This document shows positions 20,249 through 58,004 of a stretch of 64,000 nucleotides of DNA, piece by piece; position 1 is the stretch's first letter; each line of letters opens with the position of its first letter. The DNA lies in the NCBI GenBank assembly GCA_963702005.1, contig OY969696.1:800001-864000 (forward strand), written 5' to 3'. The notes beneath the pieces are model-generated. The model made no database searches, was not told where the DNA came from, and saw only the letters and a list, made by a program, of their open reading frames with translations. A program made the translations under genes and the position numbers. The DNA comes from Candidatus Aminicenantes bacterium. GTDB lineage: Bacteria; Acidobacteriota; Aminicenantia; Aminicenantales; JAFGBC01.

Positions 20249-20253
20249 TTAAA

Positions 20254-20337: not shown

Positions 20338-20360
20338 ACCCTCTTAGAAGAAGCCCGACT

Positions 20361-23469: not shown

Positions 23470-23504
23470 GCGGCGTCCGACGCCTCGAGCCGACTTTTTC
23501 TATT

Positions 23505-24926: not shown

Positions 24927-25099
24927 GTTAGCTCTTTGGCGATGGGCGCCGAGCTCGGACTCGACGCTGCCCTTATTACATAAATATTAGGGCCGACCGC
25001 GGATCGATGCCAAGCGGTCGGAACAGCGGGCGGAACGAGCACGGCTTTACATTTTCGTGATGACCGGAAACGGGCTTTGATCATGAGCGGCGATTTTCA

Positions 25100-35688: not shown

Positions 35689-38025
35689 TTATTTCTCCCG
35701 CTCTTTTCTCTTGAGGTACTCGGCGGGGTCGACCAGGATCTCCCGGGGTTTGCTGCCCTCGGACTGGCCGAGGATGCCCTCCTGCTCCATCTGGTCGATG
35801 ACCCGGGCGGCCCGGGCGTAACCGAACTTCATCTTCCGCTGGAGGTAGGAGGCCGAAGCCTGGCCGGTCAGGAGGACCAGCTCGACCGCCTTTTCGTAGA
35901 GCTCGTCCCGCTCGCCCGAGTCCTCCCAGAAGTCCTCGGCGCTGCCCTTGATGACCCGGACGATCTTCTCGTCGTAAACGGGCGCCCGCTGGCCCTTGGC
36001 GAACTTGACGATCCGGCTGATCTCGGGCGACGAGATGAAGGCCGAGTGGAGGCGGAGCAGGCGCGGGTAGTTGGGCGGCATGAACAGCATGTCGCCCAGT
36101 CCGAGCAGCTTCTCGGCGCCGGAGGTGTCGAGGATGATCCGGGAGTCGATCTTGGAGGGAACCCGGAATGCGATCCGGCTTGAGAAGTTGTTCTTGATCG
36201 TTCCGGTGATGACGTCGATCGATGGCCGCTGGGTCGCCATGACCAGATGGATGCCGACGGCCCGGGCCAGCTGGGCCAGCCGGGCGATGCAAAACTCGAC
36301 CTCCTGGGAGCCGATCATCATCAGCTCGGCCAGCTCGTCGATAATGATGACGAGGTAGGGAAGAGGCTTGAGCTTCTCCTTTTCCTCGTCCGTGAGCTTC
36401 CCCCGCTTCTCGGCGATCATCTGGCGGACCATCTGGTTGTACTGTTCGATGTTCCGAACCTTGAAGGAGAGGAGCATTTGGTAGCGCTCCTCCATCCGCT
36501 TTATGGCGTCCATCAGGATGATGCCGGCCTTCTTGGGGTCGTTGATGACCGGGCTGATCAGGTGGGGGATCCCGTCGTAGAGCGTGAACTCGATCCGCTT
36601 GGGGTCGATCAGGATGAGCTTGACTTCGTCCGGGGTCGCCTTATAGAGGATCGAGGCGATCAGGGCGTTGAGGGCGACGCTCTTTCCCGTCCCGGTCGCG
36701 CCCGCGATCAGGAGGTGGGGCATGACGCCCAGGTCGGTGATGTAGGTCTCGCCGTGGACGGTCTTGCCCAAGGCGATCGTCAGCTTGGAGGGCGAGTTCC
36801 GGAATTTCTCCGACTGAAGGATGTCGCGAATGCGGATGGTCTCCCGCTTGTTATTGGGAATTTCGACACCCAGCGAGGACTTGCCGGGAATGCGCTGGAT
36901 GCGGACGGACTCGGCCCCCAGGGCCAGCGAAAGATCCTCGGTCAGGTTGGCGACCTGACTGACCTTGATGCCGGGGAACGGGTAGAATTCGTAGGTCGTA
37001 ATGACCGGGCCCGGATGATACTCGCGGACCTCGCCCTCGACCCGGAACTCCTTGAGCTTCTCCTCGATCCGTGTCTTCTTGTCGTAGAGCTCATCCTTGT
37101 CGACCTGCTCGGCCGGCGCGCTTTGGTCGAGGAGGTTGAGGGGGGGGAAGGTATAGTCGCCCTTTTTCCCCATTTCCGGGAAGAGATAAAGCTCGGGCCG
37201 GGCCGGGGCCGATCCCGGGAGCGGCGCGGTCAGCCTCCCCTCGCGCTTCGGCTCCCGGGCTTTCCTTTCCCTTTCCTCGCGGAGGGGGGGCGGCTTCTCC
37301 TTCCCCGCCTCGGGTTTGATGTCCTCTTCCGCCTTTTCGGCGGGGGCCGCGTATTTCTCGATGACCTTCTTCTTCATCTTTTCCCGCTCCTTGGAGCGCT
37401 GGTAGCGGGAGACCTTGATCCGGACCTCTTTGACGGCGAAATGGAAGAGGCCCGAAGCCATATGCAGCAGCTGCCGCAGGGAAAGCTTGGTCGTGAAGAT
37501 GGCCAGGAGCAGAAGAAGGACGGCCAAGGCGAGTATGGCCCCGGCCCTGTTCAGGTAGCGGACGAGAAAGGAAGATAGAGACGCGCCGAGGAGCCCTCCC
37601 GAAGAGATGTCGACGCCCCGCCAACCCAGGCGCCCGAAGACCAGGGACAGGAAGGGGGCGAGGAGGACGATGAGCCAGGCAAAAAAGCCGGCCCTGACGA
37701 AAAGCCGCTTGTCGCCGTGGCTCAGGATGGCCCGCACGCCGAGGGCGCCGAGCATGAACGGGACGAGGAAGGCGGCGAGTCCGAGCGCTTGGAGGAGGGC
37801 GTCGGCCAGCGAGGCGCCGACCTTCCCCCCGACGTTGCGGGTCGCGGCCTCCGAGGCCGAGAACCAAGAAGGGTCGGAGGCGTTATAGGAGATGAGGCTG
37901 ATCAGGGAGAACAAGGCCAGGGCGACGAGGACGATGCCCGCGATCTCGGCCGCCGGGCCCGGGCCGCGACGGCTTCCGCCGGACTTGGCCGTGGACGGCC
38001 GGGCCCGTTTCTTGGTCTTTGCCAT
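35689..38025 (-). CDS. ftsK: DNA translocase FtsK
   Basis: N-terminal 4TM domain, PHLLIAGATGTGKS, DELAELM, TQRPS, gamma domain LQRK.K.GY.RAAR. Confidence 0.96.
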   Translation of the reverse strand: MAKTKKRARPSTAKSGGSRRGPGPAAEIAGIVLVALALFSLISLISYNASDPSWFSASEAATRNVGGKVGASLADALLQALGLAAFLVPFMLGALGVRAILSHGDKRLFVRAGFFAWLIVLLAPFLSLVFGRLGWRGVDISSGGLLGASLSSFLVRYLNRAGAILALAVLLLLLAIFTTKLSLRQLLHMASGLFHFAVKEVRIKVSRYQRSKEREKMKKKVIEKYAAPAEKAEEDIKPEAGKEKPPPLREERERKAREPKREGRLTAPLPGSAPARPELYLFPEMGKKGDYTFPPLNLLDQSAPAEQVDKDELYDKKTRIEEKLKEFRVEGEVREYHPGPVITTYEFYPFPGIKVSQVANLTEDLSLALGAESVRIQRIPGKSSLGVEIPNNKRETIRIRDILQSEKFRNSPSKLTIALGKTVHGETYITDLGVMPHLLIAGATGTGKSVALNALIASILYKATPDEVKLILIDPKRIEFTLYDGIPHLISPVINDPKKAGIILMDAIKRMEERYQMLLSFKVRNIEQYNQMVRQMIAEKRGKLTDEEKEKLKPLPYLVIIIDELAELMMIGSQEVEFCIARLAQLARAVGIHLVMATQRPSIDVITGTIKNNFSSRIAFRVPSKIDSRIILDTSGAEKLLGLGDMLFMPPNYPRLLRLHSAFISSPEISRIVKFAKGQRAPVYDEKIVRVIKGSAEDFWEDSGERDELYEKAVELVLLTGQASASYLQRKMKFGYARAARVIDQMEQEGILGQSEGSKPREILVDPAEYLKRKEREK

Positions 38026-38146: not shown

Positions 38147-40665
38147 ATGAAATTGAAATTCGCGGCCTTTTTAGTTTTTTTGCTCGCGGCCATCGTCTTC
38201 ATCGGAGCCGCCCCGGGAATTCAGCAGAAGCCGACCCCAGCCCTGAAAAACAAGGCCCTGCCCCCCGGCTGGTCGACGCCGGTCGACATCTGTCCGAAAT
38301 TCCAGTACTGGAGCTATGACTCTCGGGTCACGACCGACGCAACCGGGACGAAGGTCGCCGCCGTCTGGGTCGAGGAAGGCGGGGGCGGCAAACGAATCGG
38401 ATTCAATACCAACGAAACCGGAACCTGGGAGACCGCGAGGTTCATCAACGATGGGTACATGATCGGCGAATACCCCGCGCCAGAGCTTGCCTTCGACATG
38501 AACGGCGACATCTGCGTCACCCACCAGTCGCGGATGGGGAGCGGCAACTACGAGATCCTCTTCCTCAAACGGCATGCCGGAACGTGGAGCGATCACGAGA
38601 ACGTTTCCAGAACGGGCACCGGCGGATCCATGTCGTCCTCGATGATGATCGATCCGACGACCAATGATTATTATATTCCCTGGCAGGACGACTGGGAGCG
38701 GCCTTATGAACTCGCTACCTATTGGGGACTCTACGTCGACCGGAAGACCCAGGGTGCCGGTGAGTGGAACCCCGAGGGCCGCATCCCCGACCCGACGAAT
38801 CGGAGCTACTTCCCCGACGGCGTCATTAACAGCCGGGGACACGCTTTTGTCGTCTGGGACAACCGGGCCGACATGGGGATCTCCCACGTCTTTTTCTCCG
38901 AGAACAAGACCCCGATCGACGGGGCGGCCTGGACGGCCTACTTCGACGTGTCCGGGAACACCGGCACGGCGGACAACTGGGGCTTCGCCTATCCCCGGAT
39001 CACTTGCGACGACAAAGACAACATCTATGTCTGCTGGCTCCAGAACATCGGAAACTGGGAGGCGTTCTTCCGGAAGCGAGTCGATGGAATATGGCTCGGC
39101 CGCGAGAATGTCTCCAGCACGCCCGGCAAATCGGCGCGTCCGACGGTGGCCGTCAGCCGCAAGACGGGAGAGATCTATATGGCCTGGGGGGAAAACATAA
39201 CGACCGGCTGGTCCGTCCTCATGAAGATCTGGACCAACCAGAACACCCAGAAGAAATGGCAGTGGAGCGATGCGATCAACATGACGCCGGACTCTCAGAC
39301 CGCCGATTATCCCAGCCTGTTCGCGGATGCCAACGGCGGCATCCACCTCGTCTACACCAGCAACATATCGGGCGTCTACCACATCTGGTACACAGGCAAG
39401 CTCGGCGAGATCGCGGGCTATCCTCCGCTCAACGTCGCGGCCGCCAGCAAAGCGACCGCGGCCGACCCCCGGCGCAAAGACACAACCATCAGCTGGGAGG
39501 AAAATCCCGATAACAAGCCGATCACCCTCCTGAGCTACAAGATCTACCGGAAGAAAAAGGGCGATCCGGATTCGAGCTATATAACCGCGGGAACCGTTGA
39601 CGCGAGCGCCCTTCAATTCAAAGATCCGAACCTCCTGGGCGTCCAAATCTATACCTACAAAGTGACCTCGATCGCCAGGGGAGATCTCGAAAGCCCGGCC
39701 TCGACTGCCGTCGACGACCAGCTTGTCGCGCCGCCCTTTTTCCCCCGACCAACCTGGCCGTCGTAAGCGCGTTGGGCGACGGCATCTACAAGAAGGACAA
39801 CACCCTGACCTGGCAGAAAAACACTCAGAACCGGGCCAGCGAGGTCGCCAAATATCGGATCTACCGGAAGAAGGTCAATGAGGACGACGCCGCCTACGTC
39901 CTGGCCGGAGAGGTCGCGGCGACCGTCTTCAGCTTCAAGGACGTCGGCCTGGTCAACGACCAGAAGTTTACCTATACGGCGGTCTCCTATTCCATCTACA
40001 GTTTGGAAAGCGCCCGCTCGGCTCCCGTCACGGACCTCAAGGTCTACGCGATGACCTACCCGCCGGCCTCGCCGGCTTTGTCCTCCCAGCTCGACACGAC
40101 TTCGGGGACCAAGATCAACGTCCTGACCTGGCAGGATAACCCCCAGAACCAGGGCCTTCCGATCAAGAGCTATCGGATCTACCGGAAGCCCTTGGGCGGG
40201 ACATCTTACGCGCTGCTCGGAACCGTGACCTCCGACGTTCATCGTTTTGACGACGACAATCTGGCGACGAACGGCAAGTACTACTATAAGCTGACCTCCG
40301 TCCCCGAATGGAAGATCGAGAGCGACCGATCGTCGGCCCTGCCCGAGAATTGGGTCTTCCCTCCGATCAACATCGCCCTCCTGACGGTCGTCAACGATTA
40401 CCTCCTGTACCAGGAGAAGGTCAATAAGCTGACCTGGGCCCGGAGCGCCCTGAACGATCCGGTGACCGTGGCGAGTTATAATATCTACCGCCGCAAGAGC
40501 ACGGAGGACGACGCGGCCTTCAGCGTCCTCACTACGGTCAGCGGCACGGTCTTCGAATACCTCGACCGTAAGCTCCCCTTGACCGAGAAATACGTCTACC
40601 GGATCACGGCCGAGGACAGCGCAGGGCACGAAAGCGCCGTTTCGGCCAGCTTCAGCGAAAGCTGA
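38147..40665 (+). CDS. Secreted beta-propeller + 4x FN3-like repeat protein, paralogue 1 (one-base frameshift)
   Basis: ORFs 38147-39766 and 39772-40665 join into one 839-aa protein if the C5 run at 39742-39746 is C6, as in paralogue 2 (FFPPTNLAV). Signal peptide; propeller blades (P....D..G.I.V.W); FN3-like LTW..N..N...Y.IYRK repeats. Confidence 0.8.
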
Positions 40666-40723
40666 GCGGGGCCCCCTGAAATATCTTGGCTGGAATATGC
40701 ATCGTCCAGAGGAGAGATAGAGA

Positions 40724-43210
40724 ATGAAAAGAACGATCGTGCCGGCGCTTGCGATCTGCGCGGCTCTTTTGCTGATGGCGGGATTCGTTCTTGCCAAGGA
40801 CCAGCCCGCCAAGTCCGGGAAGACCGTCCAGGCCGCCGCCGATTGGACCACGGCCGTCGATATCAGCCCGACCCTGGTCGGTTATAACGTCGACGCCCGG
40901 CTCGTGACCGATCCGGTAGGCCAGAAAGTCTATGTCGTCTGGCCGGAAACCCACCAGACCAAGAGGCTCTATTTCGTCACCAACGAGTCTGGCGCGTGGG
41001 GTACGGTCCAGGATATCAGCTCGTACCAGATCGGCGAGTACCCCGGGCCGGAGATCAACCTGGACAACGACGGGAACGTCCTCGTCGCCTCCCAGGCGCG
41101 GATGTCAACCGGCAACTACGAGATCGTCTTCAAGGAGCGGAAGAACGGGACCTGGTCCCCGGTCGAAAACGTATCCCAAACCCCGACGGGCGGCTCCCAA
41201 TCGGCCTCCATCCTGGTCGACCGGAATACGAACGATTTTTACGTCATCTGGCAGGATGATTTCGAGCGGCCCTCCGATGACGTTGCCTACTGGAAGGGCT
41301 ACCTCAGATACAAGATCAAGGGCGAGGGCCCCTGGATCTATTCGGGCGTCATCGCCGAAGAAACGGGACGCTGCTATTTCCATATCGCCGACATGGATGC
41401 CCAAGGCAAGGCCTATGTGGCCTTCGACAATCGGGCCACCGGCAACAAGGCGATCGTCCAGTTCGCCCAGAATCCGACGCCCAAAGACCATACGACCTGG
41501 ACGCGGCCGATCAACGTCTCGGATTTCACTTATCTGTATTTTTCCTATCCCAAGATGGCCTGCGACGGTAGCGGAAACGTCTACGTCGTCTGGACCAAGC
41601 AGCTTGACAACGGAAACATCGACATCTTCTTCCGGAAGCGGATCAACGGCGTTTGGACGCCGAACGAAAACCTGTCCGATACCCAGACCGTTTCCTATAA
41701 TCCCACGATCGCCGTCAACAAGCTCACCGGGCAGGTCTGCGTCGCCTGGGCCGAGCAGAGCGGCGCCAACTCCGAAATCTATTACCGGGAGAGCACGGCG
41801 ACGGGCTGGACCGACGTCAGGAACATGACGAAGAATGCGTCGTATTCCGATTATCCGGCGCTCTACGTGGACCTGATCGGCGGCGTTCATCTCGTCTACT
41901 CGGACAACCTGACCGGGAACTATCACGTCTACTACATGCACAGGGCAGGCGAGGGCGGCTGCTTCCCGCCGCTCAACCTGACCGCGGTCAGCAAGGCGAC
42001 CGCCGCCGACCCCCGGAAGAAGACCAATACCCTGACCTGGGAGAAAAACCCCTACAACGGGAAGCTGACGGTCACGAATTACAAGATCTACCGGAAAAAG
42101 AAAGACGACCCGGACACGGCCTATAAACTCCTGACGACGTTAGGCAACAACGTCTTCCAGTACCAGGACGCCGACCTGCTCGGCGTCCAGCAATACACCT
42201 ACCGGGCGACGACCGTCGTCAAGGGAAATCATGAAAGCGAAGGCTCGACCCCGGCCGACGATCAGTTCATCTCGCCGCCGTTCTTCCCCCCGACCAACCT
42301 GGCCGTCATGAGCGCGCTGGGCGACGGCATCTATAAGAAGGACGACACCCTGACCTGGCAGAAGAACGCTCAGAACAGAGCCAGCGAAGTCGCCAAGTAC
42401 CGAATCTACCGGAAGAAAGTCGAGGAGGACGACACCGCTTACGTCCTGGCCGGAGAAGTCGCGGCGACCGTCTTCAGCTTCAAGGACGTTGGCCTGGTCA
42501 ATAACCAGCGGTACAGCTACGCCGCGGTCTCCTATTCCATCTACAGCCATGAGAGCCTGCTCTCGGCGTCGGTCACGGATCTTGCCGTTTTCGCGACGAC
42601 CTACCCGCCGGTCTCCCCCGAGCTCTCCTCGCGGCTCGATACTACGACGTCGACCAAAATCAATACGCTGAGATGGCTGGACAACTCCCAAAATCAAGGC
42701 CTCCCGATCAAAAGCTATCGGATTTACCGGAAGGCCGAAAGCGATTCGAGCTACGCTTTGGCCGGCACCGTCGGCGTCGAGACCCACCGCTTCAACGACT
42801 TCAGCCTGGAAACATCGGTCAAATACGTCTACAAGCTGACGTCGGTTCCCGACTGGGACATCGAGAGCGGCCCGACCTCCGTCCTGAGCGAGGCCCGGGT
42901 CTTCCCCCCCGAAAACATCGTCCTCCAGACCGTCGTCAACAGCTTTCTTTTATACCAGGAGAAGGTCAATAAGCTGACTTGGGTTCTGAATGCCCTTAAT
43001 GACCCGGTGACCGTCGCGAGCTATAAGATCTATCGCAAAAAGACGGGCGAGGACGATTCGGCCTACGCCCTCGTGGGCACGGCCGGCGGCGCGTCTGTTG
43101 AATATCTCGACCGGAAGCTGCCGTTGACCGATAAATACGTTTACCGAATCACGGCCGTGGACAGCTTGGGGAACGAGAGCAACGCTTCGACCGGCTACGG
43201 TGAGAGCTGA
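40724..43210 (+). CDS. Secreted beta-propeller + 4x FN3-like repeat protein, paralogue 2
   Basis: Signal peptide; collinear with paralogue 1 (IGEYP.PE, GNYEI.F, WQDD.ERP); four FN3-like repeats. Confidence 0.85.
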   Translation: MKRTIVPALAICAALLLMAGFVLAKDQPAKSGKTVQAAADWTTAVDISPTLVGYNVDARLVTDPVGQKVYVVWPETHQTKRLYFVTNESGAWGTVQDISSYQIGEYPGPEINLDNDGNVLVASQARMSTGNYEIVFKERKNGTWSPVENVSQTPTGGSQSASILVDRNTNDFYVIWQDDFERPSDDVAYWKGYLRYKIKGEGPWIYSGVIAEETGRCYFHIADMDAQGKAYVAFDNRATGNKAIVQFAQNPTPKDHTTWTRPINVSDFTYLYFSYPKMACDGSGNVYVVWTKQLDNGNIDIFFRKRINGVWTPNENLSDTQTVSYNPTIAVNKLTGQVCVAWAEQSGANSEIYYRESTATGWTDVRNMTKNASYSDYPALYVDLIGGVHLVYSDNLTGNYHVYYMHRAGEGGCFPPLNLTAVSKATAADPRKKTNTLTWEKNPYNGKLTVTNYKIYRKKKDDPDTAYKLLTTLGNNVFQYQDADLLGVQQYTYRATTVVKGNHESEGSTPADDQFISPPFFPPTNLAVMSALGDGIYKKDDTLTWQKNAQNRASEVAKYRIYRKKVEEDDTAYVLAGEVAATVFSFKDVGLVNNQRYSYAAVSYSIYSHESLLSASVTDLAVFATTYPPVSPELSSRLDTTTSTKINTLRWLDNSQNQGLPIKSYRIYRKAESDSSYALAGTVGVETHRFNDFSLETSVKYVYKLTSVPDWDIESGPTSVLSEARVFPPENIVLQTVVNSFLLYQEKVNKLTWVLNALNDPVTVASYKIYRKKTGEDDSAYALVGTAGGASVEYLDRKLPLTDKYVYRITAVDSLGNESNASTGYGES

Positions 43211-45618
43211 AGCCGGGAGAGGACCGCGAGGCCCGCGGGAAGAAGGAACTCGACCGTCGCCGGCCCCCCGGCCTTTTCCGGCTTCTCCTTGTCGTAGTAG
43301 TAGTCGTAACCTGCGAATAAGCGCGGCTTCTCGGAGAAGGGCGGGAGCTTAAAAATCGCGCGGACTCCCCCCAGATTAGCGTTTTCGTAAGATCCGACCT
43401 TGCCCTTGAACAGGACGAGCCGGGCCGTCTCCTTCCCGGCGGCGTCCGCGACTTCGAGGAAGGGGTTGAGGACGTAATCGTCGCCGAAGCGGAGTTCCCC
43501 CCCGTAGATGGAACTCGTCAACCTCCAGCCGGAGCCCGTCCGAGCGAGCGTCACGGCTTGGAAGTAATCATCCCCGCGGGTGTTGGGAAGGGCCGCGTAG
43601 CTGAAAATGTATTCGATCTTTTTTTTGGGTTTCCCTGCATCGAGCCGGACGTCGGCCAGCGGCATCTCTTTCCGGAGGCGGCGGGCGGGGTCGAGTCCGG
43701 GGACTTTTGAGGTGAAAGCGAATTCGTATCCGATCAGAGCCTTATAGCGGCCGGGAGCGAGCTCCAGGGACACGGACTTGGAGAAGGCCGCGACCCCGCC
43801 GCCCGGCTTTCCGAAATCGCCGTTTTTAAGGACGAGACGGGCCGCCTCGCGTTCTCTCTCGTCGACGAGACGGACATAGGGCATAAAGACCCGTTCATCC
43901 TTGCGGCGGAGGCCGGCCGCCTTGATCGAGCTCCTGAGCGTCCAGGCTTTGTCCGATGTCCGGACCAAGGTCGCCGACTGGGTGTACTCTTTAAAGTTGC
44001 CGGGAAAGCCGGGGTCGGGGCAGGTGCTGAGACGATAGATCTTGATGGTCGGATTGTGGAGGTCGATCAGCTTATCATCCCACTTGGGGACGAAGGTTTT
44101 GATGAGGACGGCCTTTTCATCGAGCGAGCGATAGAAAGCGGCCTGGGCCGGAAAGTCCTTGGGATAGGGAACAAACCGGCCGTATTCGAGGTCGCTGATG
44201 ACGGCGTATTCAACCCCGCGGCGGGCCAGCCAGTCGAGGTTGATCTGGCTGAGGCTGGGGGTCTTGAAATAGACGCGGTAGACCCCGGGCGATATAGGCG
44301 GCCCGTATTGCTCAAGGGCTATCTTTGTCTTGGGGGGGAGGTTGGCCTCGATCCAGTCCTTGGCGACGGTTCGGGTGTCGGGGCGGATGAGGTTGATGTC
44401 GAATTTTGCGACCTTGACGGCCGAAGGCAAGACGACCAAGACGATCAGGGCCGCGCTCAGCCAGCCGCCTCGCCTCGTCCCGGGCCGATCCCCGGGCACG
44501 GCCGCCCCTCCGCTGAATGGGCGCCGGGACAGCAGCCAATCCAGGAAGAAAGCCGCGATCAGGATGAAGAAAGGCGCCGCCGGAAGCATATAGCGCGTCG
44601 CATAGGTCTTCCAGGTCGAGACCGTGACCTGAAGGACTAGAGGGGCGGAAAACAGGATCCACTCCCGCCTCCGACTCTTGATGAAGCCGAGAATGAAGCC
44701 CCCCAGGGCGAGGACCTGAATGATGAGCCCCAAGTTCTCAAGGAATCCGTACCGCAAGTAGAAGAGAGGAACGCTGACCGACGGGGCCGTTCCATAATGG
44801 CCGAAGCTGAAGAGGTGGCCCGACTGCCAATTGAAATGGGATTTGAAGGTCGAAAAATCGGACAGGATATAGGGGCAGGATCCCAGGAAGGCCAGGATGA
44901 AAGCGACTCCCGAGCCGATCAGGGGGAGGCTGAATACGATCTTCCACAGCGGCTTTTTGCGTTCGAGCCCCCGAAAGAGGTGGGCCAGGAACAGGGGGAT
45001 GAATAGCACGTGGCCCCCGTACTTGGTCGCGAAGGCCAGGCCGGCGAAAAGGCCGGCCAGGAGGTAATCCCGTGTTTTTCCTTCTTGGTAAACGGCCCAG
45101 ACGAACAGAAAGGAGAGAACGATGAACAAGATCATCGGGCCGTCCGGATTCAGGTAGTGGGACGCCCGGTTATGCTCCAGGGAGAATATGAGGAATAGGG
45201 CGGCCAAGGCACCGACTCTTGGACCGTACATCTTCTTCCCGAGGACATACATGAAAAAGACAGTCAAGACGCTCATCAGGGCCGTCAAGAGGCGGCCGGC
45301 CATATAGAGGAGAGAAGGGTCCTTGGCGAAGCGACCGAGCAGGTCCTCTCTGGTGTTGAATTGGCCGGAGACCTTGCCCGTTAAATAGACACCTTCCCAG
45401 GCTGCCGCGACTAAATAAATATAGAGCGAAGGAATATAGAAGAAATGAGGGTTGAGATCACCTCTGAGGACGCCCGCCGAGAGCTGGGCGAATCGGGCTT
45501 CATCGACATGATAGACGTTGGGGAGCCCAAAGGACAGGCCCGCCAGCCTGACCACGACCGCCAGCAGGATGAGGGCGGCGACGAGGGCCTTGTCGCGGGA
45601 GCGCGTTTGAGTGTCCAT
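43195..45618 (-). CDS. GT-C (ArnT/PMT-like) membrane glycosyltransferase with C-terminal duplicated domain
   Basis: H.DE in the first loop, LNPHFF..P, GR, GLAFATKY, RYMLP; many TM helices; long soluble tail. Confidence 0.85.
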   Translation of the reverse strand: MDTQTRSRDKALVAALILLAVVVRLAGLSFGLPNVYHVDEARFAQLSAGVLRGDLNPHFFYIPSLYIYLVAAAWEGVYLTGKVSGQFNTREDLLGRFAKDPSLLYMAGRLLTALMSVLTVFFMYVLGKKMYGPRVGALAALFLIFSLEHNRASHYLNPDGPMILFIVLSFLFVWAVYQEGKTRDYLLAGLFAGLAFATKYGGHVLFIPLFLAHLFRGLERKKPLWKIVFSLPLIGSGVAFILAFLGSCPYILSDFSTFKSHFNWQSGHLFSFGHYGTAPSVSVPLFYLRYGFLENLGLIIQVLALGGFILGFIKSRRREWILFSAPLVLQVTVSTWKTYATRYMLPAAPFFILIAAFFLDWLLSRRPFSGGAAVPGDRPGTRRGGWLSAALIVLVVLPSAVKVAKFDINLIRPDTRTVAKDWIEANLPPKTKIALEQYGPPISPGVYRVYFKTPSLSQINLDWLARRGVEYAVISDLEYGRFVPYPKDFPAQAAFYRSLDEKAVLIKTFVPKWDDKLIDLHNPTIKIYRLSTCPDPGFPGNFKEYTQSATLVRTSDKAWTLRSSIKAAGLRRKDERVFMPYVRLVDEREREAARLVLKNGDFGKPGGGVAAFSKSVSLELAPGRYKALIGYEFAFTSKVPGLDPARRLRKEMPLADVRLDAGKPKKKIEYIFSYAALPNTRGDDYFQAVTLARTGSGWRLTSSIYGGELRFGDDYVLNPFLEVADAAGKETARLVLFKGKVGSYENANLGGVRAIFKLPPFSEKPRLFAGYDYYYDKEKPEKAGGPATVEFLLPAGLAVLSRLQLSP

Positions 45619-45630
45619 GAGCCAAGCTTT

Positions 45631-45659
45631 AATCTACAAAATGGGGGCGATTACGTCAA
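45631..45659 (-). promoter_or_regulatory. sigma70 promoter of the GT-C gene
   Basis: TTGACG-17 nt-TAGATT. Confidence 0.55.
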
Positions 45660-45813
45660 CCTCGGAGGGCTGAGCGGCGCCGGGAGGGGCTGAGCGTCGT
45701 TTTTTCTGGTAGAGTGGAAACGGCGGGTCCATATGATATCACTATTTGCGGTTAGCCGATGAGGGTGATCCGGGGTCATAATAAATCATCGCGGGAATCA
45801 CCGCCCGTGATGA

Positions 45814-45842
45814 TTGACCATTCCGATTCCGTCCCCTATCTT
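45814..45842 (+). promoter_or_regulatory. Possible sigma70 promoter of paralogue 3
   Basis: TTGACC-17 nt-TATCTT; an inverted repeat at 45784-45815 touches the -35. Confidence 0.45.
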
Positions 45843-45873
45843 GATAAGCGGAGTATCTGGATAAGGTAGCGCC

Positions 45874-48672
45874 ATGAGGAAAAAAACCCTAATTTGTTTT
45901 TTTTGCGCCGTTCTCGGCCTGATCCTCGTTCTTCTGGGCGGTAAGCCCCTGGCCGGCGGCGATACCCTGAAGAAAGTCTCGCCCTATAAGCTGAAGGTGG
46001 GAGCGCCCATTAACATCTCGAGCACGGGAGCGCCCTCCGAAGACCCCGAGATCGTGGCCGGCAACGGCGGCAAGGCCTATGTCGTCTGGGTCGAGGTCAA
46101 GGGGCCCAAAGAGCTCTGGTTCAACACCAACGAGACCGGAAATTGGGGGAACAAGGCCCGCGTCGACCCGCCCTTCTCCCTGGGGTCGGGCGAAGGCGGC
46201 CGCCCCTGCCTGGTCATGGATAAGACCGGCCGGCTCCACTACGTCTATCAGGGCAAGTCGTCCTCGGGCAATTACGAAATCATCTACAACAGCGGCAAGA
46301 ACCGGAGCTGGGCCGGGAACGAGAACGCCTCCCAGACGGACGGGGGCCAGGTCTGGGGCGGTTCGAACTACCCGAGCGTCGACGTTTCGCCCACGGATTT
46401 ATATCGTTACGCGGTCTGGATGGACGATTCGAGCTCCCCGGACCACTGGGAGCTCTTCATGCGCTTCAAGGGGCCGGAATCGACGGCTTGGAGCTCCCTC
46501 CAAGTCCTGCCGGGCTATCCGAACTGCTATGAACCCGAAATCACCATCGACGGGACCGGGACGGCCCACGTCATCTACACCCGGCGGGCCTATGGCAGCG
46601 CCGTCATCTGGTACATGTCGAACAGCACCCCGGCGGATCTGAAAGCCTGGACAACTACGACCATAATCTCGGGCCAGAGCGGAATCGATTTCCCCGAGCC
46701 GACGGCGACCTCTGACAACTACGGAAACGTCTATGTCGTCTGGCCCAATATGGTCAACGGCCAGAGCGACATCTATTTCCGGAAGAAGATCAACGGGGCT
46801 TGGCAGCCGATCGAGAACGTCTCTAAAACCGAGAGCGGCTCCTTATACCCGGACGTCGCCGTCGATAAGAACACCGGCGTCGTCGGAGTCGTCTGGCAGG
46901 AGAAGGTCGGCGCCACCTGGCAGATATTCTTCAAATACTTCCAGAACGGGGGCTGGGCCAGCGCCGTCAATGTCAGCAACAACAGCGGCCATAGCATGGA
47001 CCCAACCATCGCCTTCGACGAGACGGGGCAGGTCCACATCGCCTATGTCGGCTACGTCAACGGCCAGGAGGATATCTTCTACTCGGGGGCCGAAGGCGGG
47101 GCCATGATCTATCCCCCCATCAATCTCGCCGTCGAGAGCAAGGCGGCCAGCGAGCCCCATAAAAAATTCAACACCCTGACCTGGGAGGCCAACCCCGACA
47201 ACAAGGGGATTACGATCACGAATTACAGGATCTACCGCAAAAAAAAGGACCAGCCCGACGCCGATTACGCGCCGATCGGCACCGTCGGGAATACCGTCTT
47301 TTCCTACCGGGACACGGACCTCCCCAGCAACCAGCAGTTCACCTATAACATGACCTCGATCGCCGACGGAAACCAGGAGAGCATGGGCTCGGAGTCCGTG
47401 ACCGACGAGATCGTCCTCCCGCCCGTCTTCCCGCCGACCGGATTCGCGATCGTGAGCGATATCGGAAGCGGTCCCCACAAGAAGGACAACACCCTGACCT
47501 GGGCCAAGAACTCCGTCAATAAGGAGAGCGAGGTCGCCAAGTACAAGATCTACAGGAAGAAGGCCGAACAGTCATCGGAGGAATTCGCCTTCATCGGATC
47601 GGTCGGGCCGTCGGTCTTCAGCTACCGGGACCGGGATCTGGTCAACGACCAGAAATACACCTACAACATGACGACCTTCTCGACCTACGGGAACGAAAGC
47701 GATCCGACCCCTTCCCTGACCGACAAGGAAGTTTGGCCTCCGATCTATCCTCCGGTCAATGCGGCCGTGGTCAGCGCCCTGGGGGACGGCCCCTACAAAA
47801 AAGACAACACCCTGACCTGGGCCAAAAACGCGGACAATAAGCCCAGCGAGGTCGTCAAGTACAAGATCCTCCGCAAAAAGGTCGAGGACTCGCCGGCCGC
47901 TTACGAGGTCATCGGGTCGGTCGGGCCTGACGTCTTCAGCTACAAAGACAAGAACCTCGTCAACGACCAGCGCTACACCTATACGCTGGTGACCCTTTCC
48001 TACTTCGGGAACGAGAGCGACCGATCCGGGTCCGTAACCGACCGGGCCGTCTACGCTCCGACCTATGCTCCTTTAAGCCTCGCCCTCACGACGCGGCTCG
48101 ACGAAACCCAGACCAAGAAAATCAACGTCCTGACCTGGCAGGACGACCCCCAGAACGAGGACCTTCCCATCAAGAACATCCGGATCTACCGGAAGCTCGA
48201 CGGGAACGGGGACTACCTCTTGTTCGCGACCGTCTCGGCCGGCGTCCATCGCTTCGAGGATAAGAGCCTGGCCACGACGAAAAAATACCTCTACTTGCTG
48301 ACCTCGGTCCCGGCCTGGGGGATCGAGAGCGCGCGGAGCTTGCCCGTCTTGGAGGAGTGGGTCTTCCCGCCGATCAGCCTCAACCTCCAGACCCAGGTCA
48401 ACGACGGCCTGTTCTTCAAGGAAAAGATCAACACGATCCGCTGGAAGAAGAACCCGCTCAACGACGCCCGGACCGTCGTGAAATACGGGCTGTGGCGCAA
48501 GCTGGTCGGTCAGGACGACTCCGCGTTCAAAGTCCTGGCGGAACTCGACGCGTCCGTCCTGGAGTACCTGGACCGGGGCTTAGGGCTCGACGATAAATAC
48601 GTCTACGTCCTGACGACGGTCGACTCGGTCGGGAACGAAAGCAACAAGTCGAGAAACCTGCCCAAGGACTGA
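45874..48672 (+). CDS. Secreted beta-propeller + 5x FN3-like repeat protein, paralogue 3
   Basis: Signal peptide; FNTNETG.W and GNYEI shared with paralogues; five PP.N...N.LTW...Y.I.RK repeats. Confidence 0.85.
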   Translation: MRKKTLICFFCAVLGLILVLLGGKPLAGGDTLKKVSPYKLKVGAPINISSTGAPSEDPEIVAGNGGKAYVVWVEVKGPKELWFNTNETGNWGNKARVDPPFSLGSGEGGRPCLVMDKTGRLHYVYQGKSSSGNYEIIYNSGKNRSWAGNENASQTDGGQVWGGSNYPSVDVSPTDLYRYAVWMDDSSSPDHWELFMRFKGPESTAWSSLQVLPGYPNCYEPEITIDGTGTAHVIYTRRAYGSAVIWYMSNSTPADLKAWTTTTIISGQSGIDFPEPTATSDNYGNVYVVWPNMVNGQSDIYFRKKINGAWQPIENVSKTESGSLYPDVAVDKNTGVVGVVWQEKVGATWQIFFKYFQNGGWASAVNVSNNSGHSMDPTIAFDETGQVHIAYVGYVNGQEDIFYSGAEGGAMIYPPINLAVESKAASEPHKKFNTLTWEANPDNKGITITNYRIYRKKKDQPDADYAPIGTVGNTVFSYRDTDLPSNQQFTYNMTSIADGNQESMGSESVTDEIVLPPVFPPTGFAIVSDIGSGPHKKDNTLTWAKNSVNKESEVAKYKIYRKKAEQSSEEFAFIGSVGPSVFSYRDRDLVNDQKYTYNMTTFSTYGNESDPTPSLTDKEVWPPIYPPVNAAVVSALGDGPYKKDNTLTWAKNADNKPSEVVKYKILRKKVEDSPAAYEVIGSVGPDVFSYKDKNLVNDQRYTYTLVTLSYFGNESDRSGSVTDRAVYAPTYAPLSLALTTRLDETQTKKINVLTWQDDPQNEDLPIKNIRIYRKLDGNGDYLLFATVSAGVHRFEDKSLATTKKYLYLLTSVPAWGIESARSLPVLEEWVFPPISLNLQTQVNDGLFFKEKINTIRWKKNPLNDARTVVKYGLWRKLVGQDDSAFKVLAELDASVLEYLDRGLGLDDKYVYVLTTVDSVGNESNKSRNLPKD

Positions 48673-48688
48673 AAAACTACCGCCCCGC

Positions 48689-50056
48689 TTATCTCTTGGG
48701 GAGGTCGAAACAAAGATTGAGGCCGAGCCCGAACTCCGTCCCGCCCAGCTTGATATCGACTCCGTTCTGGGTCGCGGTCGCCTGGGTGAATTTGATGTAG
48801 AGCTTGGCCGCCAGGAAGTCAAGCCCGGGGATGCGATAGTAAACGCCGGCCTGGGCATGGAAGCCGACGGTGTTTCCGGACACCTCGTGGACTGCGCTCT
48901 TCTCTTTGTAGCCGAACAAATCCATCCCGATCCCCGCGAAGGGCATGACCTCCCGGCCCTTGAGCAGGGCGAGAGCCGTGAATGAGATGGGGTGGAGGGT
49001 CAACGTCGTCGCGTCCTTGGTAAAGGTCGCCTTCCCATCCTTGGAGAAGTACCGGTAGGCGGCGGAGAGTCCGAACGAAAACTTCTCGGCCGAGACGAAA
49101 TACTTGGAGAGCTCGCCCCCGAAAATATAACCCGCGTTTCCGTAGACGTCGGTGTAGGCTGAGGAGGCGATGCCGTAGCTTCCGCCCAAGATACCGATTA
49201 GGGTATTCTGGAAGGGCCGGACGACGGCGGGCCCTTCGGCGATGGGCCGGACGGCCTGGGCCGCTTCTTTCCGGCCTTTAGCCGCTTGGGCCGGCCGGGC
49301 CTGGACGTCCTGCCAGAACAAGGTTTCGACGGCGTTGGGACCGGGCGTGACGGTAAAGGACGGCTGGTTTTCGTCCAGGGCGAAGACGACCTGGTAAGCC
49401 TGGCCGTCCGTCTTTTCGATCGTGATCCGCTTCAGGCCGGCTCGATTGATGTCGACGAATGGAGGAGCCGAAATCTTCTCGACCGGCGAGAAGAGGAGCA
49501 GGAGCCTGCCCGGCTGGGCCAGCCGGAAGCCCTGGAAGACCACCGGGCCTTCGGTCAGGACCTTGATTTTCATCTGGTCGTTGACCTTTTCGAAGGTGAT
49601 GTCCTTGAGGTCGGCGGGGACCGCTCCGGCCGCCGGAGCGGCTTCGGGCGCGACGGCTTCGGCCTGGGCCTGGGCTTGCCAGAAGGTCACGACGACCTGG
49701 TTCTGATTCTGGCTGATCTTGTAGAGCGGGAATGTCCCGGGAACGTCGAAGACGATCCGGGCGACCTGGGGCTGATACTGGGCGGTCCGGACCGCCGTGA
49801 CCCCGAAGGCGCTGACGTCATAGGCGGCCTCGGTCAGGACTTTGGTGACGGGCGTGAATTCGACGACGAGCCGGCCGGGATCGGCCATCTCGAAGGTCTG
49901 ATAGGTGAAATCGCCCTCGCATTCGATCTGGGCGACGAGCTCGGTTTCCGTTTTTTGGAAGGTGATCGACTTCAGAGTCGCCGGCTTGGCCTGCGCGGCG
50001 GCCATGACGCTTGCGGCTAAGATCAGGGCTAAGGCCATCAGGGTCTTTTTTTTCAA
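48689..50056 (-). CDS. Outer-membrane protein: two AMIN domains + small C-terminal beta-barrel
   Basis: Signal peptide; two F.[ML]..PGRL..[EL]F AMIN-like repeats; alternating aromatic/glycine strands at the C-terminus (PFAGIG, GFHAQAG, GGTEFGLGLNLCF). Confidence 0.7.
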   Translation of the reverse strand: MKKKTLMALALILAASVMAAAQAKPATLKSITFQKTETELVAQIECEGDFTYQTFEMADPGRLVVEFTPVTKVLTEAAYDVSAFGVTAVRTAQYQPQVARIVFDVPGTFPLYKISQNQNQVVVTFWQAQAQAEAVAPEAAPAAGAVPADLKDITFEKVNDQMKIKVLTEGPVVFQGFRLAQPGRLLLLFSPVEKISAPPFVDINRAGLKRITIEKTDGQAYQVVFALDENQPSFTVTPGPNAVETLFWQDVQARPAQAAKGRKEAAQAVRPIAEGPAVVRPFQNTLIGILGGSYGIASSAYTDVYGNAGYIFGGELSKYFVSAEKFSFGLSAAYRYFSKDGKATFTKDATTLTLHPISFTALALLKGREVMPFAGIGMDLFGYKEKSAVHEVSGNTVGFHAQAGVYYRIPGLDFLAAKLYIKFTQATATQNGVDIKLGGTEFGLGLNLCFDLPKR

Positions 50057-50080
50057 TGCGAGTCCTCCTCTACTTTTTTC

Positions 50081-52138
50081 TCAATCGTGGATCGCCTCGG
50101 ATATCGGTCCTTCAACGCTGTCCCGTCTTACGGCTTGGAGGTAGTAGACATAGCGGCGGGCGGGATCGATGAGCGCGTCAACGTACCGAAATCTCTCGGC
50201 GACTCCTGTTATGGGATATCGCGCCAGGAAGGTCAATCCTTCCTGCGGGGAATGATCCTCATTCCGAAAAACATTATACCCTATCAGGACGATAGGATGC
50301 AACACCTTGGGATTATGAACCCAGGTCAGGAGGTTGACGGGCCGGCTCATAAGGAGGCTCCTCTGGGTCGTCCGCTCAACCGCGGGAGAGGCCGGCCCGA
50401 AGGGCAGGACGATGACTTCATCATACCAGGTCCGGGTCATGATCTCATAGCCCTTGTCGGTCGGATGGACCTTATCGGAAAGAAGAGACCTCCAGCCTCC
50501 GTCGGCTTCGGGATAGTCGTAGAAAGCGTAAAACTGTTCGACCAAGGGAAGCCTCAGATTTCCGGCTAGGGCTCTGATCATGTCGTTAAGATTGAAGATC
50601 CGGTCCCGGTAGAATTTCACGCCCCAGCGCCAGTCGCTGCGGGGTATGATCGTGGCCAAGACCGGATAGACCCCGACCGCCCGGGCTTTATCGATCATCT
50701 GCTTGAGGTGGAAGGCCGTGGCGCTCATGGCGATCTCGCTGAAGATGACATCGTTCGTGCCTTCCATCAGGAGGAGGTACCGCGCCGGGTGGGCGGCCAG
50801 GACCGGCCCCATCCGGCCCATGCCGTTAATGGTGATCTCGCCCGGCCAACCTTCGTTGACGATCGAGGCCGCGCCGAATCGGGTTTCGAGCAAAGCCGCC
50901 AACCTGGGAATATAGCCTCGCTCCGGAGCGTACTGGTTGTCGATGACGCCGTAGGTGATGCTGTCTCCGAACCCGATATAGGTGTCCTCGACGCTGGCTT
51001 CTCCCCGGGAGGTCCGGGAAGCGGGGGCGGAAGGCGGGGGCGACGAAAGTCCCGCCAAGGCCGAGATTTCGAAAACCGCCGTCCTGACGGTCTCGTTTTC
51101 TTCCCAGGCTAGGGCGAGCCTTCCGGCGTCGGCGGCCGCCCGGATTGGGCGGCTCAAGGGGGATTCGGTCGCGGCGAGGGTCATTTCCCGCCCCCAAGCG
51201 CCGCCCGAACGACGCCTGGCCAGGATACGGCCGTTCCCGCTGGCGGAACGGTACCATATAACGAGAGGGCTTCCGTCAGGAAGAAAAACGAGGGACGGGA
51301 AGAAATCCTGCTCTCCGTTGTCGGTGAGGGCGCTTTCGGTCCTCCAGCGATTCCCATCCCGGCAGGCGGCCTGGACCTCATAGTCGTTCCCGTCGAAGCC
51401 GGACCAGACGAGCCAAGGTCCCCCCTCCCGGTCGGCCGCCGCTTGAAGGAAGAGGCGGGGCGAGACGGAGGCGGGCGCGATGGCCTCCGGAGAGCTGAAG
51501 GCGTCGCCGTCAGCGATCCAGGATGCGGCGAAGATCTCGGACCGGCCGGGCGCGTCTTGCGTCCAGAACGCCCAGAGTCGCAAAGGTCCGGCCGCGAGCC
51601 TTGTGCAGGAGATCTCGTTTTCCGAGGTGGCGATCGTAAGAAATGCGCCGCGCCGGGGGGACCAAACTCGGACGGAGTAAGAGAGGCCGGAATAGAAAAC
51701 GCCGGCGAGCCAGGGCCGATTGGCCAGGTCGAAAGCCAGATCGAGCGAAACCGGAAAATCCGTCCCGATCCGGGATTTCAGAATCGTCTCGAGCCGTCGG
51801 TCCAATAGGCGGGCGAGCCTAATTTCGTTCCCGGCCGGTCCTTCCTCGCCCCAGGCCGCCCAGAGCCCGCCGGAACGGTCCTTGCGGAGGATGGGCGCCT
51901 GGGTCAGGAGGTGACCGGATAAAGAACGGGCGATATAGTCCGGGCGCGAGCCGTCCGAGGAGGCCAGCCCCAGACGCTCTCCCGCATCCCGGAAGAGGAC
52001 CGTGAGATCGCCGCGCTCTGAGAACGCCGGAGAGGGCGAATGCCCCGTGATCGGCGGATTCTGATCCCCCTCTCCCGAGAAAAGCGCGGCCATCATGAGA
52101 AGGGTCAGCAGAGGGGACAACCGGAGAAAACGTCTCAT
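50081..52138 (-). CDS. Secreted SGNH/GDSL hydrolase with N-terminal propeller-like region and C-terminal FN3-like domain
   Basis: FGDSITYG, G.PG, EGTND, DKVHP catalytic blocks; ATG at 52138 gives a signal peptide; C-terminal NLLTW.HNP...GYNVFR...Y.Y...AV domain. Confidence 0.8.
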   Translation of the reverse strand: MRRFLRLSPLLTLLMMAALFSGEGDQNPPITGHSPSPAFSERGDLTVLFRDAGERLGLASSDGSRPDYIARSLSGHLLTQAPILRKDRSGGLWAAWGEEGPAGNEIRLARLLDRRLETILKSRIGTDFPVSLDLAFDLANRPWLAGVFYSGLSYSVRVWSPRRGAFLTIATSENEISCTRLAAGPLRLWAFWTQDAPGRSEIFAASWIADGDAFSSPEAIAPASVSPRLFLQAAADREGGPWLVWSGFDGNDYEVQAACRDGNRWRTESALTDNGEQDFFPSLVFLPDGSPLVIWYRSASGNGRILARRRSGGAWGREMTLAATESPLSRPIRAAADAGRLALAWEENETVRTAVFEISALAGLSSPPPSAPASRTSRGEASVEDTYIGFGDSITYGVIDNQYAPERGYIPRLAALLETRFGAASIVNEGWPGEITINGMGRMGPVLAAHPARYLLLMEGTNDVIFSEIAMSATAFHLKQMIDKARAVGVYPVLATIIPRSDWRWGVKFYRDRIFNLNDMIRALAGNLRLPLVEQFYAFYDYPEADGGWRSLLSDKVHPTDKGYEIMTRTWYDEVIVLPFGPASPAVERTTQRSLLMSRPVNLLTWVHNPKVLHPIVLIGYNVFRNEDHSPQEGLTFLARYPITGVAERFRYVDALIDPARRYVYYLQAVRRDSVEGPISEAIHD

Positions 52139-52252
52139 TTTATGGGAGTGTAATATAGCATAGCCCCCGACCGTTGGCAACGAAGCTACGGTCATTGACT
52201 CCAGGTCCATGCTGATATAAGTTAATCGTTGATTTTGCATTCAAGCCAGGAG

Positions 52253-53308
52253 ATGCGGAGAGTGAAAGCCCGGCTCGAACATCCCCCTCTATTGATGTTC
52301 CTCTTGGGCGGTATCGCCGGCGCGGCGGTCAACCTCGGGGTCACGCTCGCCCTCCGGGCGGGCTTGGGGGCGCCCGAGACGATAGCCTTTTTCCTGGGCA
52401 CCATGGCAAACCAGCTCTTCCATTATCTGTATTACAACTTCCTTTATGTGAATCGCGAAATCCGGCTCCGGACGCCCTTCCCGGTCAACCTTAGCCTCTA
52501 CGCTCTCGTGGCGGCCGGAGCGACCGTTCTTCTCATCCTCATCCGGAAGTCTCTCGGCTGGCCGCTCGTCCCGTCGCTTCTCGCCGTCATCGTGCTCCTG
52601 TCCGTCCTCAACTCCCTGGTGAACCGGATCTCGACCTTTTCGTCGGCCACTCTGGCCGAAGTCGAGTACCGCAACGTGGGAGAAAGTTTTTACGACGACC
52701 AAACCGACCGCGGCAAGGTCAGTCGCTTCCGGGCTTGGTACCACCGCTCCCGTTATGAGCGCCTCAAGGCGCTCATCGGTTCGGTTTGGCGTCAAGGGAT
52801 GAGGATCGTCGATTTAGGCTGCGGGAACTGCTGGTGGAACACGGACGGGATCCCGGTCACCGGGCTGGACGTGAACGAGAAGATGCTCCAGTGGGCCAAG
52901 CGCCACGGGCGCCTGACCGAGTATCGGGTCGAATCCGACCTGTCGCGGACCGGGCTGCCCGATCGGGCCTTAGATATTGTCGTTTGCTCAGAAACCCTGG
53001 AGCACCTCCTGAACTTCGAGGACGTTCTCAAAGAGATCCGCCGCATCCTCAAGGACGACGGGACGCTGGTCGTCACGGTTCCCTGGGATTTTTTCCTGGG
53101 TCCCTTTTTCGTGCTTTTCAATTTAAATTGTTTGTTCATGGCCTATGTCAAGGGCAGCCGTTATCATTTGTTTCGCTGCGGTCATATCAACCACTTTACC
53201 CGGAGACGCCTGAAGAAGGTCCTTGGGGAGGCGGGCTTCGAGGCGACTCGCTTGTCCGTGGTCAACGGGCTCCTTCTCTATGGAACCGCCCGAAAGAAAA
53301 CCTCCTAG
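52253..53308 (+). CDS. GtrA-like membrane domain fused to class I SAM methyltransferase
   Basis: Four N-terminal TM segments, then VDLGCG, GLD, SETLEHL, RILK.DG...VTVP, HIN.FT. Start may instead be the GTG at 52262. Confidence 0.75.
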   Translation: MRRVKARLEHPPLLMFLLGGIAGAAVNLGVTLALRAGLGAPETIAFFLGTMANQLFHYLYYNFLYVNREIRLRTPFPVNLSLYALVAAGATVLLILIRKSLGWPLVPSLLAVIVLLSVLNSLVNRISTFSSATLAEVEYRNVGESFYDDQTDRGKVSRFRAWYHRSRYERLKALIGSVWRQGMRIVDLGCGNCWWNTDGIPVTGLDVNEKMLQWAKRHGRLTEYRVESDLSRTGLPDRALDIVVCSETLEHLLNFEDVLKEIRRILKDDGTLVVTVPWDFFLGPFFVLFNLNCLFMAYVKGSRYHLFRCGHINHFTRRRLKKVLGEAGFEATRLSVVNGLLLYGTARKKTS

Positions 53309-53328
53309 GCTGAGCCTTCGTCCGAGGT

Positions 53329-53357
53329 TTGACTCACCCCGGCGGTTAAACTAAAAT
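53329..53357 (+). promoter_or_regulatory. sigma70 promoter (leaderless) of the SGNH/spermidine-synthase-like/TolB-like operon
   Basis: TTGACT-17 nt-TAAAAT, 6 nt before the GTG at 53364. Confidence 0.65.
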
Positions 53358-53363
53358 GCGCCT

Positions 53364-57983: not shown

Positions 57984-58004
57984 GGGGACGTCCGGGCGGT
58001 CCGC

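Follow-up and report, generated by a model that had tools for sequence, protein, structure and literature searches.

In type B of the secretion system known as type IX (T9SS), the gene of the cognate PorP/SprF barrel commonly lies directly downstream of the cargo gene, orphan cargo proteins share one shuttle, surface anchoring via binding to the barrel has been proposed, and PorE is the periplasmic partner, according to the parts of the sources available (PMC12618676; PMC9143113). In Myxococcus, the gene of the FN3-containing surface protein SgmI (MXAN_2561) is followed by the co-transcribed outer-membrane barrel gene MXAN_2562, as stated in the available part of bioRxiv 10.64898/2026.08.28.747804. 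The stretch of DNA analysed here (the window, 64,000 nucleotides, G000:C1:800001-864000) belongs to the genome G000 of a Candidatus Aminicenantes bacterium, a single contig (C1) that is 94% complete. Four of its proteins, cargo A to D, end in the same FN3-like domain, the tag, and a small outer-membrane barrel fused to AMIN domains is encoded among them. The key pattern, which an earlier sequence-only reading of this DNA did not contain, is that tag genes often stand directly before barrel genes. Tag and barrel form a real, class-wide module that is apparently undescribed; no earlier description was found in the literature searched, which covered few subscription journals and no supplements.

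That three propeller paralogues (cargo A, B and C) and an SGNH hydrolase (cargo D) share their terminal domain had been proposed before, and a profile places all four: one family of about 104 residues forms the C-terminus of each. The profile of these four detects five further terminal copies in G000, giving nine tag proteins in total. The tag is an FN3 domain whose A-B hairpin is lengthened and usually hydrophobic. In the AlphaFold2 model of the cargo D tag, a seven-strand FN3 domain (predicted local distance difference test, pLDDT, 92.7), the hairpin comprises strands 6-16 and 21-30 with residues 17-20 at the tip. The top fold matches are all FN3 (best the Dscam FN3 7y5r, VIA Z 13.4, root-mean-square deviation 2.0 over 97 residues), and ordinary FN3s align to the tag profile only from position ~17-26 onwards. 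With a profile trained on terminal domains, the Pro-to-Trp spacing is 24 in 127 of 145 terminal domains and 22 in 20 of 25 internal repeats, and two or more large hydrophobic residues occupy the hairpin tip in 135/145 and 1/25, respectively. Because this set had been chosen with the terminal-trained profile, the counts were repeated with a profile built from terminal and internal domains together, which gave a hydrophobic tip in 153 of 187 last but 2 of 33 internal domains and a spacing of at least 23 in 156/187 versus 3/33. Long-hairpin domains are in last position in 156 of 159 cases, as expected of a C-terminal tag. The claim that a hydrophobic loop is unique to the terminal copy thus holds as a contrast but not as a universal rule, 24 of the 156 long-hairpin last domains having a polar tip (e.g. 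NRSLSQxEY). The internal FN3 repeats are likely copies in which two hairpin residues and the tip have been lost and which now form a stalk. Neither Pfam nor NCBIfam has a tag-specific model, the tags matching weakly as fn3-type only, and the ESM Atlas clusters of tag and barrel are merely hypothetical, fn3 or generic OMP_b-brl.

The proteins that carry the tag are diverse, as had been predicted for a sorting signal: they fall into 18 clusters by their N-terminal part, and 22 of the 23 representatives scanned have a Pfam match. Among them are peptidases of families S8, C1, C10, C39, C45, M6, M12 and M28, the families GH53, SGNH, PKD, FG-GAP/ASPIC, SBBP/DUF7948/DUF11, InlB B-repeat, Vps10, BACON, BNR_4 and DUF5696, and, from the protein search, matrixin. 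C10, M6, S8, FG-GAP/ASPIC, SBBP, InlB B-repeat and BACON are typical surface-protein types. The five further cargo proteins of G000 are a C39-like peptidase, a propeller-PKD protein, two Vps10-like propellers and an M28 peptidase. According to a crude heuristic scan of our own (not SignalP), 72 of 83 full-length cargo proteins have a signal-peptide-like start after the Met, and in none of the 83 did it find a lipobox or a transmembrane-like segment in the last 45 residues. Cargo need other means of retention.

The evidence that links the tag to the barrel is genetic. Among 79 non-redundant tag genes with enough flank, a barrel match lies at most 1.3 kb downstream in 39 cases, and an AMIN protein follows in four more. 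Of 51 metagenome loci of one subtype, 33 have a barrel after the tag gene, as do 8/8 titled genome loci. A further 60 barrels were taken down the barrel match list without regard to the tag, skipping known or contig-edge ones; 29 have a co-oriented tag gene upstream, one a convergent tag gene only, five a nearby AMIN gene, and 25 neither. By our estimate, which assumes 8 tag genes, 2.2 kb, 3 Mb and one strand, an adjacent tag gene is expected by chance at ~0.3% per barrel, compared with the 30/60 observed. In G000, a barrel follows three of the nine tag genes and one more tag gene is convergent with a barrel. The pairing extends to subtypes. Of the 121 class genomes, 32 have a tag of the FIFFKEY type (E 1e-30). 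Every one of these 32 also encodes the matching barrel type, which is present in 41 of the 121 (barrel only in 9, neither in 80). Of 38 such tags 31 adjoin their matching barrel, and for the other seven it is encoded at another place in the genome. In G000, an orphan barrel (2.21 Mb) and an orphan peptidase tag (4.29 Mb) are of this pair type.

Could this adjacency have come about without any functional link, an ordinary lineage-specific FN3 domain having travelled with its neighbour through repeated duplication of an ancestral two-gene block? The fold and the Pfam matches of the tag are indeed those of plain FN3, and the subtype matching as well as the mirror-tree correlation (r 0.80) can be explained by co-duplication alone; for this confounding the correlation was set aside as evidence. 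However, the N-terminal cargo part has been swapped many times with tag and barrel kept together, the hairpin features were lost in internal copies but kept in terminal ones, and genomes with unlinked genes retain both subtype partners, so that we consider this explanation very improbable. Another explanation starts from tips such as FIFF, YIFY and FLLY, which on a protruding hairpin resemble peripheral membrane-binding loops: the tip might insert into outer-membrane lipid or lipopolysaccharide (LPS), with the barrel being merely a co-regulated neighbour. Polar-tip subtypes (NRSLSQxEY, NRNVS) are nevertheless paired with barrels as well, with barrel clades of their own; this speaks for recognition between proteins rather than insertion into lipid, and a subtype match of 32/32 is not expected for a lipid anchor. 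We give lipid insertion little credence.

The barrel of the window is modelled with eight strands, an L1 helix and long loops (pLDDT 94.8), and its nearest folds are OmpA/OmpW. The conserved non-glycine residues Y27, E70, T72, Y105, E107 and P152 are on the loop side, which would be extracellular by OmpA topology. Genomes encode one to eight paralogues, mostly plain proteins of ~200 residues such as that at L003:11674-12261, the others being fused to AMIN, membrane-fusion (HlyD-like) or PKD domains. AMIN domains bind peptidoglycan. A barrel-bearing gene follows 14 of 15 SGNH-tag genes and is AMIN-fused in 13 of those, and for this reason the window AMIN-barrel is most likely the cognate partner, and likely the anchor, of the SGNH cargo, cargo D, as judged from gene order. 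The sequence-only reading had cast the AMIN-barrel as receptor for all cargo; it survives as likely partner of the SGNH protein, but a single shared receptor is not supported, given that genomes encode several paralogous barrels, most of them without AMIN domains.

Several variant barrel proteins were seen as well. In L055:3777-6803, L056:6101-9187, L057, L062, L063 and L064, one or two HlyD/biotin-lipoyl membrane-fusion-protein modules are joined to the same small barrel, in three loci between tag-bearing cargo genes; such proteins could form an unusual trans-periplasmic link. In L059:2039-3811, L060 and L061, a single protein combines the barrel with three PKD domains and, by eye, an SH3-like domain. 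A second AMIN-fused type with longer loops (family F5; L261:7730-9016(-), L263:198-1457, L267:9474-10694), which we call a barrel from its sequence pattern, matches the main barrel in profile comparison with only 30% probability. It occurs in 12 of 22 core-locus regions (see below), several of the barrels behind SGNH-tag genes being of this type in place of the window-type AMIN-barrel, and is absent from the window's own locus.

Tag and barrel had been expected to co-distribute, and the link turned out stronger than proposed, adjacency and subtype matching adding to the presence of the tag hairpin in 113 and the barrel in 117 of the 121 class genomes. The class belongs to the Acidobacteriota. 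In a sample of 301 genomes of this phylum, the tag is found at E <=5.8e-17 in 27/27 class genomes and the barrel at E <=2.8e-19 in 26/27, and among the 274 genomes outside the class G091 alone reaches such values for both. Manual checks revealed weaker tags in G101 and G174; they also showed a barrel behind an M28-tag gene in G101 and in G281, the latter a class genome missed in the earlier barrel count. Full-length weak matches in G264, G217, G227 and G302 are ordinary short-hairpin FN3s and were rejected as tags. The genome-by-genome search covered this phylum; the named non-Aminicenantes matches in protein searches are FN3-repeat proteins, and multi-FN3 proteins so dominated a HMMER scan of 1.84 billion representatives that it is uninformative on range. 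Close homologues of the window proteins are labelled Candidatus Aminicenantes. Of the eight titled loci, four are Aminicenantes/Aminicenantia and four Eubacteriales/Clostridiales with the same tag-barrel pair; the latter are probably mislabelled bins.

For binding itself, a co-fold of the cargo D tag with the window barrel scored 0.42, compared with 0.00 for the best of three controls. The runs agree in >=93% of contacts with a partner pLDDT of >=77, and returned no interface. Of 157 solved pairs 116 reached the co-fold mark, as did 2 of 215 mismatched ones; at 0.60 or under, however, those that reached it were only 18 of the 157 and both mismatched pairs. The co-fold proposed in the sequence-only reading thus gives weak support for tag-barrel binding and adds a little, because the pair is already likely from gene order. 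Inter-protein covariation in 96 pairs (effective 70), too few sequences, gave no signal (top z 6.5 versus 6.1-8.5 in shuffled pairs). With no interface returned, either side of the membrane is compatible with the co-fold, and the pair might meet on the periplasmic face, the cargo being periplasmic enzymes tethered via the barrel to outer membrane and wall. Such an arrangement does not need a translocon, and the AMIN, membrane-fusion and SH3-like fusions indicate periplasmic activity around the barrels. It is distinctly unlikely, however, in view of the conservation on the outer loops of the barrel and of cargo types and stalks of three to four FN3 domains that are typical of surface proteins.

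Concerning export, G000 encodes a PilQ-like secretin and a second secretin, which has TPR and cohesin domains and lies beside GspE- and GspF-like genes, as well as TamB and six Omp85 proteins. At G000:C1:4029029-4033928(-), a second BamA-like gene comes immediately after two small barrels, which alternate with two small repeat proteins of lipoprotein-like type; this may be a dedicated module for assembly. At G000:C1:1640762-1647057(+), TamB is fused to POTRA domains, and an overlapping frame encodes the Omp85 barrel; the two are probably a single TamB-TamA fusion split by a frameshift. A SprA-sized T9SS barrel is absent among the six longest open reading frames of the 94% complete genome, which all belong to other families; searches of G000 for SprA_N, TIGR04183 and PorP gave no match, the control genomes being equally silent. 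The pair might be the export unit itself, a split pathway resembling type V secretion: in the periplasm, the nascent barrel would be bound by the tag, which would be carried out as the barrel assembly machinery (BAM) or a BamA/TamA paralogue folds the barrel, and would stay attached. One-to-one co-transcribed pairs fit such co-assembly, as do the second BamA-like protein behind its two small barrels and the lack of T9SS parts in searches that were silent in control genomes too. Passengers are also exported with an 8-stranded barrel in type Vf autotransporters. The lumen of eight strands is, however, too narrow for a folded domain, orphan cargo and convergent gene pairs are common, and fusions of tag and barrel number zero among the loci examined, the five matches of a weak long-protein search being all AMIN-barrels. 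We therefore regard this route as unlikely.

Taken together, tag and barrel are very probably functional partners. With somewhat less assurance, and slightly better than even odds, we favour the reading that the tag is a surface-anchoring module whose cargo is kept on the outer face by the outer loops of the cognate barrel. Several observations weigh against it. About half of the tag genes have no adjacent barrel, 25 of the 60 barrels have neither tag nor AMIN gene nearby, and none of the six tag genes of G091 adjoins a barrel. One family (five sequences, P0287-P0292) has a second tag-type domain 244 residues from the end, L070 carries a penultimate one, and a tail of 10-29 residues extends beyond the domain in 28/132. 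Adjacent pairs were used to build the subtype profiles, 6 of the 32 genomes being among the contributors, and related genomes are not independent. In addition, the fusions of some barrels to membrane-fusion-protein or PKD domains hint at other jobs, and no translocon was identified.

If the tag is an anchor, cargo would enter the periplasm via Sec as soluble proteins and would cross the outer membrane most likely through the secretin cluster, which resembles a type II secretion system, or through BAM or the translocation and assembly module. The hairpin, which is predicted to dock on the outer loops of its cognate barrel, would then be read by a barrel of the matching subtype, whose gene is usually the neighbour and in other cases lies elsewhere in the genome; for this step the pairing is genetic and the binding weakly predicted. 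AMIN-fused barrels, including that of the window, would tie the complex to peptidoglycan, consistent with the known role of AMIN domains. New cargo would arise when enzymes fuse upstream of the tag-plus-barrel cassette. More tentatively, and with considerable doubt, the Aminicenantes may have a secretion-and-display pathway of their own, a T9SS analogue of unrelated parts with an FN3-derived signal, barrels that receive and display, and an unrecognised translocon. The hairpin would then encode specificity, and some barrels would be wired to peptidoglycan through AMIN or to inner-membrane transporters through membrane-fusion domains. Aminicenantes are widespread as uncultured degraders that live in anoxic sediments and digesters. 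The tag profile hidden Markov model would predict their set of surface enzymes, and the tag provides a testable protein pair.

The features of the window are collected in Table 1. The propeller paralogues A, B and C have no Pfam match above cut-off; Pfam agrees with the earlier assignments of the SGNH hydrolase, the two-AMIN plus small barrel protein (OMP_b-brl below threshold) and the GT-C glycosyltransferase. The genes of cargo C and AMIN-barrel are convergent with a gap of 16 bp, and cargo D, with a probable start at 52138 in a frame open to 52240, ends 24 bp ahead of the AMIN-barrel gene. The frameshift in cargo A coincides with a T5C5 run; because the contigs of 3/3 public runs have one extra C and the same-genus genome G001 has intact paralogue copies of 832 and 838 aa, it is probably an assembly error. 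The genes belong to a conserved core locus of the order, compared in 22 regions from 19 genomes, with ftsK-like, GT-C, propeller-tag, SGNH-tag, AMIN-barrel, radical SAM, TolB-like and ksgA-like genes, some of these names being presumptive. The GT-C gene (family F6) is a conserved neighbour in 11/22 regions, as are other envelope genes, but the idea that it glycosylates the cargo is unsupported, since nothing links it to them. Positions 52229-58982 of the window encode a GtrA-methyltransferase fusion, an SGNH-like protein, a large membrane protein without Pfam match, a TolB-like propeller and a radical SAM/SPASM protein; this part, partly conserved in the core locus, is suggestive of surface-glycan modification. 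At 34501-35682, an extracytoplasmic function (ECF)-type sigma factor gene is followed by that of a small Ig-like membrane protein, possibly its anti-sigma factor. The G+C content is 0.51-0.55 at 20001-26000 of the window, compared with ~0.63 elsewhere.

A separate observation concerns an expanded Vps10/BNR propeller family of 14 genes in G000, each interrupted at the same site by one in-frame stop, which is TGA in 14/14. Each TGA is followed by a hairpin with a CAG(G/T)TC(T/C)G core, which we take to resemble the bacterial selenocysteine insertion sequence, and a Cys is often found ~20 residues upstream. selB and tRNA-Sec adjoin two of the 14 genes. Further copies occur in G001 (four) and G374 (at least one). 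Two of the 14 carry the tag; the other 12 end after the propeller. Judged from these sequence features, the paralogues are likely secreted selenoproteins whose family is unlisted and whose genes have been annotated as split, and the same literature, with few subscription journals and no supplements, contained no description of such a family.

Table 1. Features of the window (window positions) and TGA sites of the propeller family (positions on G000:C1)
Feature	Position	Strand	Basis or remark
Cargo A: signal peptide, beta-propeller-like region, 3 internal FN3 repeats, terminal tag	38147..40665	+	frameshifted ~39741
Cargo A, halves of the open reading frame in this assembly	38147-39766 and 39772-40665	+	
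Terminal tag of cargo A, hairpin tip YLLY at 40399-40410	40351..40662	+	
Cargo B, 828 aa: propeller-like region, 3 internal FN3, terminal tag	40724..43210	+	
Terminal tag of cargo B, tip FLLY at 42944-42955	42896..43207	+	
GT-C glycosyltransferase, conserved neighbour	43195..45618	-	Pfam PMT_2, E 3.7e-17
Cargo C, 932 aa: propeller-like region, 4 internal FN3, terminal tag	45874..48672	+	
Terminal tag of cargo C, tip GLFF at 48406-48417	48358..48669	+	
AMIN-barrel: signal peptide, two AMIN domains, 8-stranded OmpA-like barrel	48689..50056	-	Pfam and predicted structure
First AMIN domain of AMIN-barrel	49685-49966	-	
Barrel part of AMIN-barrel	48701-49222	-	OMP_b-brl below Pfam cut-off, E 9e-5
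Cargo D: propeller-like region, SGNH/GDSL hydrolase, terminal tag	50081..52138	-	Pfam
Terminal tag of cargo D, predicted FN3 with extended A-B hairpin, tip SLLM at 50348-50359	50084..50407	-	
Presumably ftsK-like gene (from sequence features), conserved flank of core locus	35689..38025	-	family F13 in 7/22 regions
TGA sites (G000:C1)	781499(-), 773567(-)		L003:13497 and 5565 regions
Further TGA sites (G000:C1), first six of 12	756866, 759043, 761161, 763359, 872843, 1222324		
Further TGA sites (G000:C1), last six of 12	2078302, 3456209, 3597567, 3599647, 3974490, 4137330		

Compared with known systems, the tag differs from those of sortases, exosortases, rhombosortases and myxosortases, in which a short C-terminal motif is combined with a transmembrane helix and a basic tail, in that a C-terminal transmembrane-like segment is missing in the 83 full-length cargo proteins, and the pair differs from type V autotransporters in that no open reading frame with both parts was seen among the loci examined or in the weak long-protein search. 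In fold, both parts resemble generic families, the 8-stranded barrels of OmpA/OmpW type (PF13505) and FN3 (PF00041), but they are set apart by the lengthened A-B hairpin of the tag and by the long conserved outer loops and L1 helix of the barrel, which are lineage-specific; neither Pfam nor NCBIfam has a model dedicated to the barrel. Like SgmI and MXAN_2562, the module consists of a gene for an FN3-containing protein followed by an outer-membrane barrel gene. As far as the available part of that source describes it, however, SgmI carries its FN3 domains centrally, has a sorting tag of its own at the C-terminus and belongs to a single pair, for which that part shows no binding, whereas here the FN3 is terminal, a membrane tag is missing and the cargo are many. 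The MXAN_2562 family (NF040596) is matched weakly by 12/62 barrels (best E 1e-7), the window barrel remaining below its curated cut-off (26.6 versus 100 bits). With the type A C-terminal domain of T9SS (TIGR04183) and PorV, the module shares a seven-strand sandwich of ~100 residues at the C-terminus of the same kinds of enzymes and, in G091 with several tags and one detected barrel, a pattern like that of a shared shuttle; it differs in belonging to another sequence family, in having several cognate barrels per genome instead of one, and in lacking evidence of cleavage or LPS conjugation. As in T9SS type B (TIGR04131), a Sec signal and a C-terminal domain are found on diverse cargo, the barrel gene commonly lies directly downstream, and orphan cargo is served by an unlinked barrel, as far as the genetic evidence goes; the AMIN fusion would parallel the wall-binding role of PorE. 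Unlike T9SS, the lineage is outside the Bacteroidota, and 0/62 tags match the type A (TIGR04183/PF18962) or type B (TIGR04131/PF13585) models of Pfam/NCBIfam at E 0.01. PorP has 14 strands, whereas the barrel here is predicted to be 8-stranded and OmpA-like, with PorP-model matches in 0/62 and weak PorG matches in 9/62. On genetic evidence the tag-barrel module thus works like T9SS type B, but it is not a member because the folds of tag and barrel differ. If the binding is true, small OmpA-like barrels would be dedicated anchors for folded proteins that offer orthogonal pairs for surface display, and the design of a C-terminal domain plus cognate barrel known from T9SS would have been invented independently.

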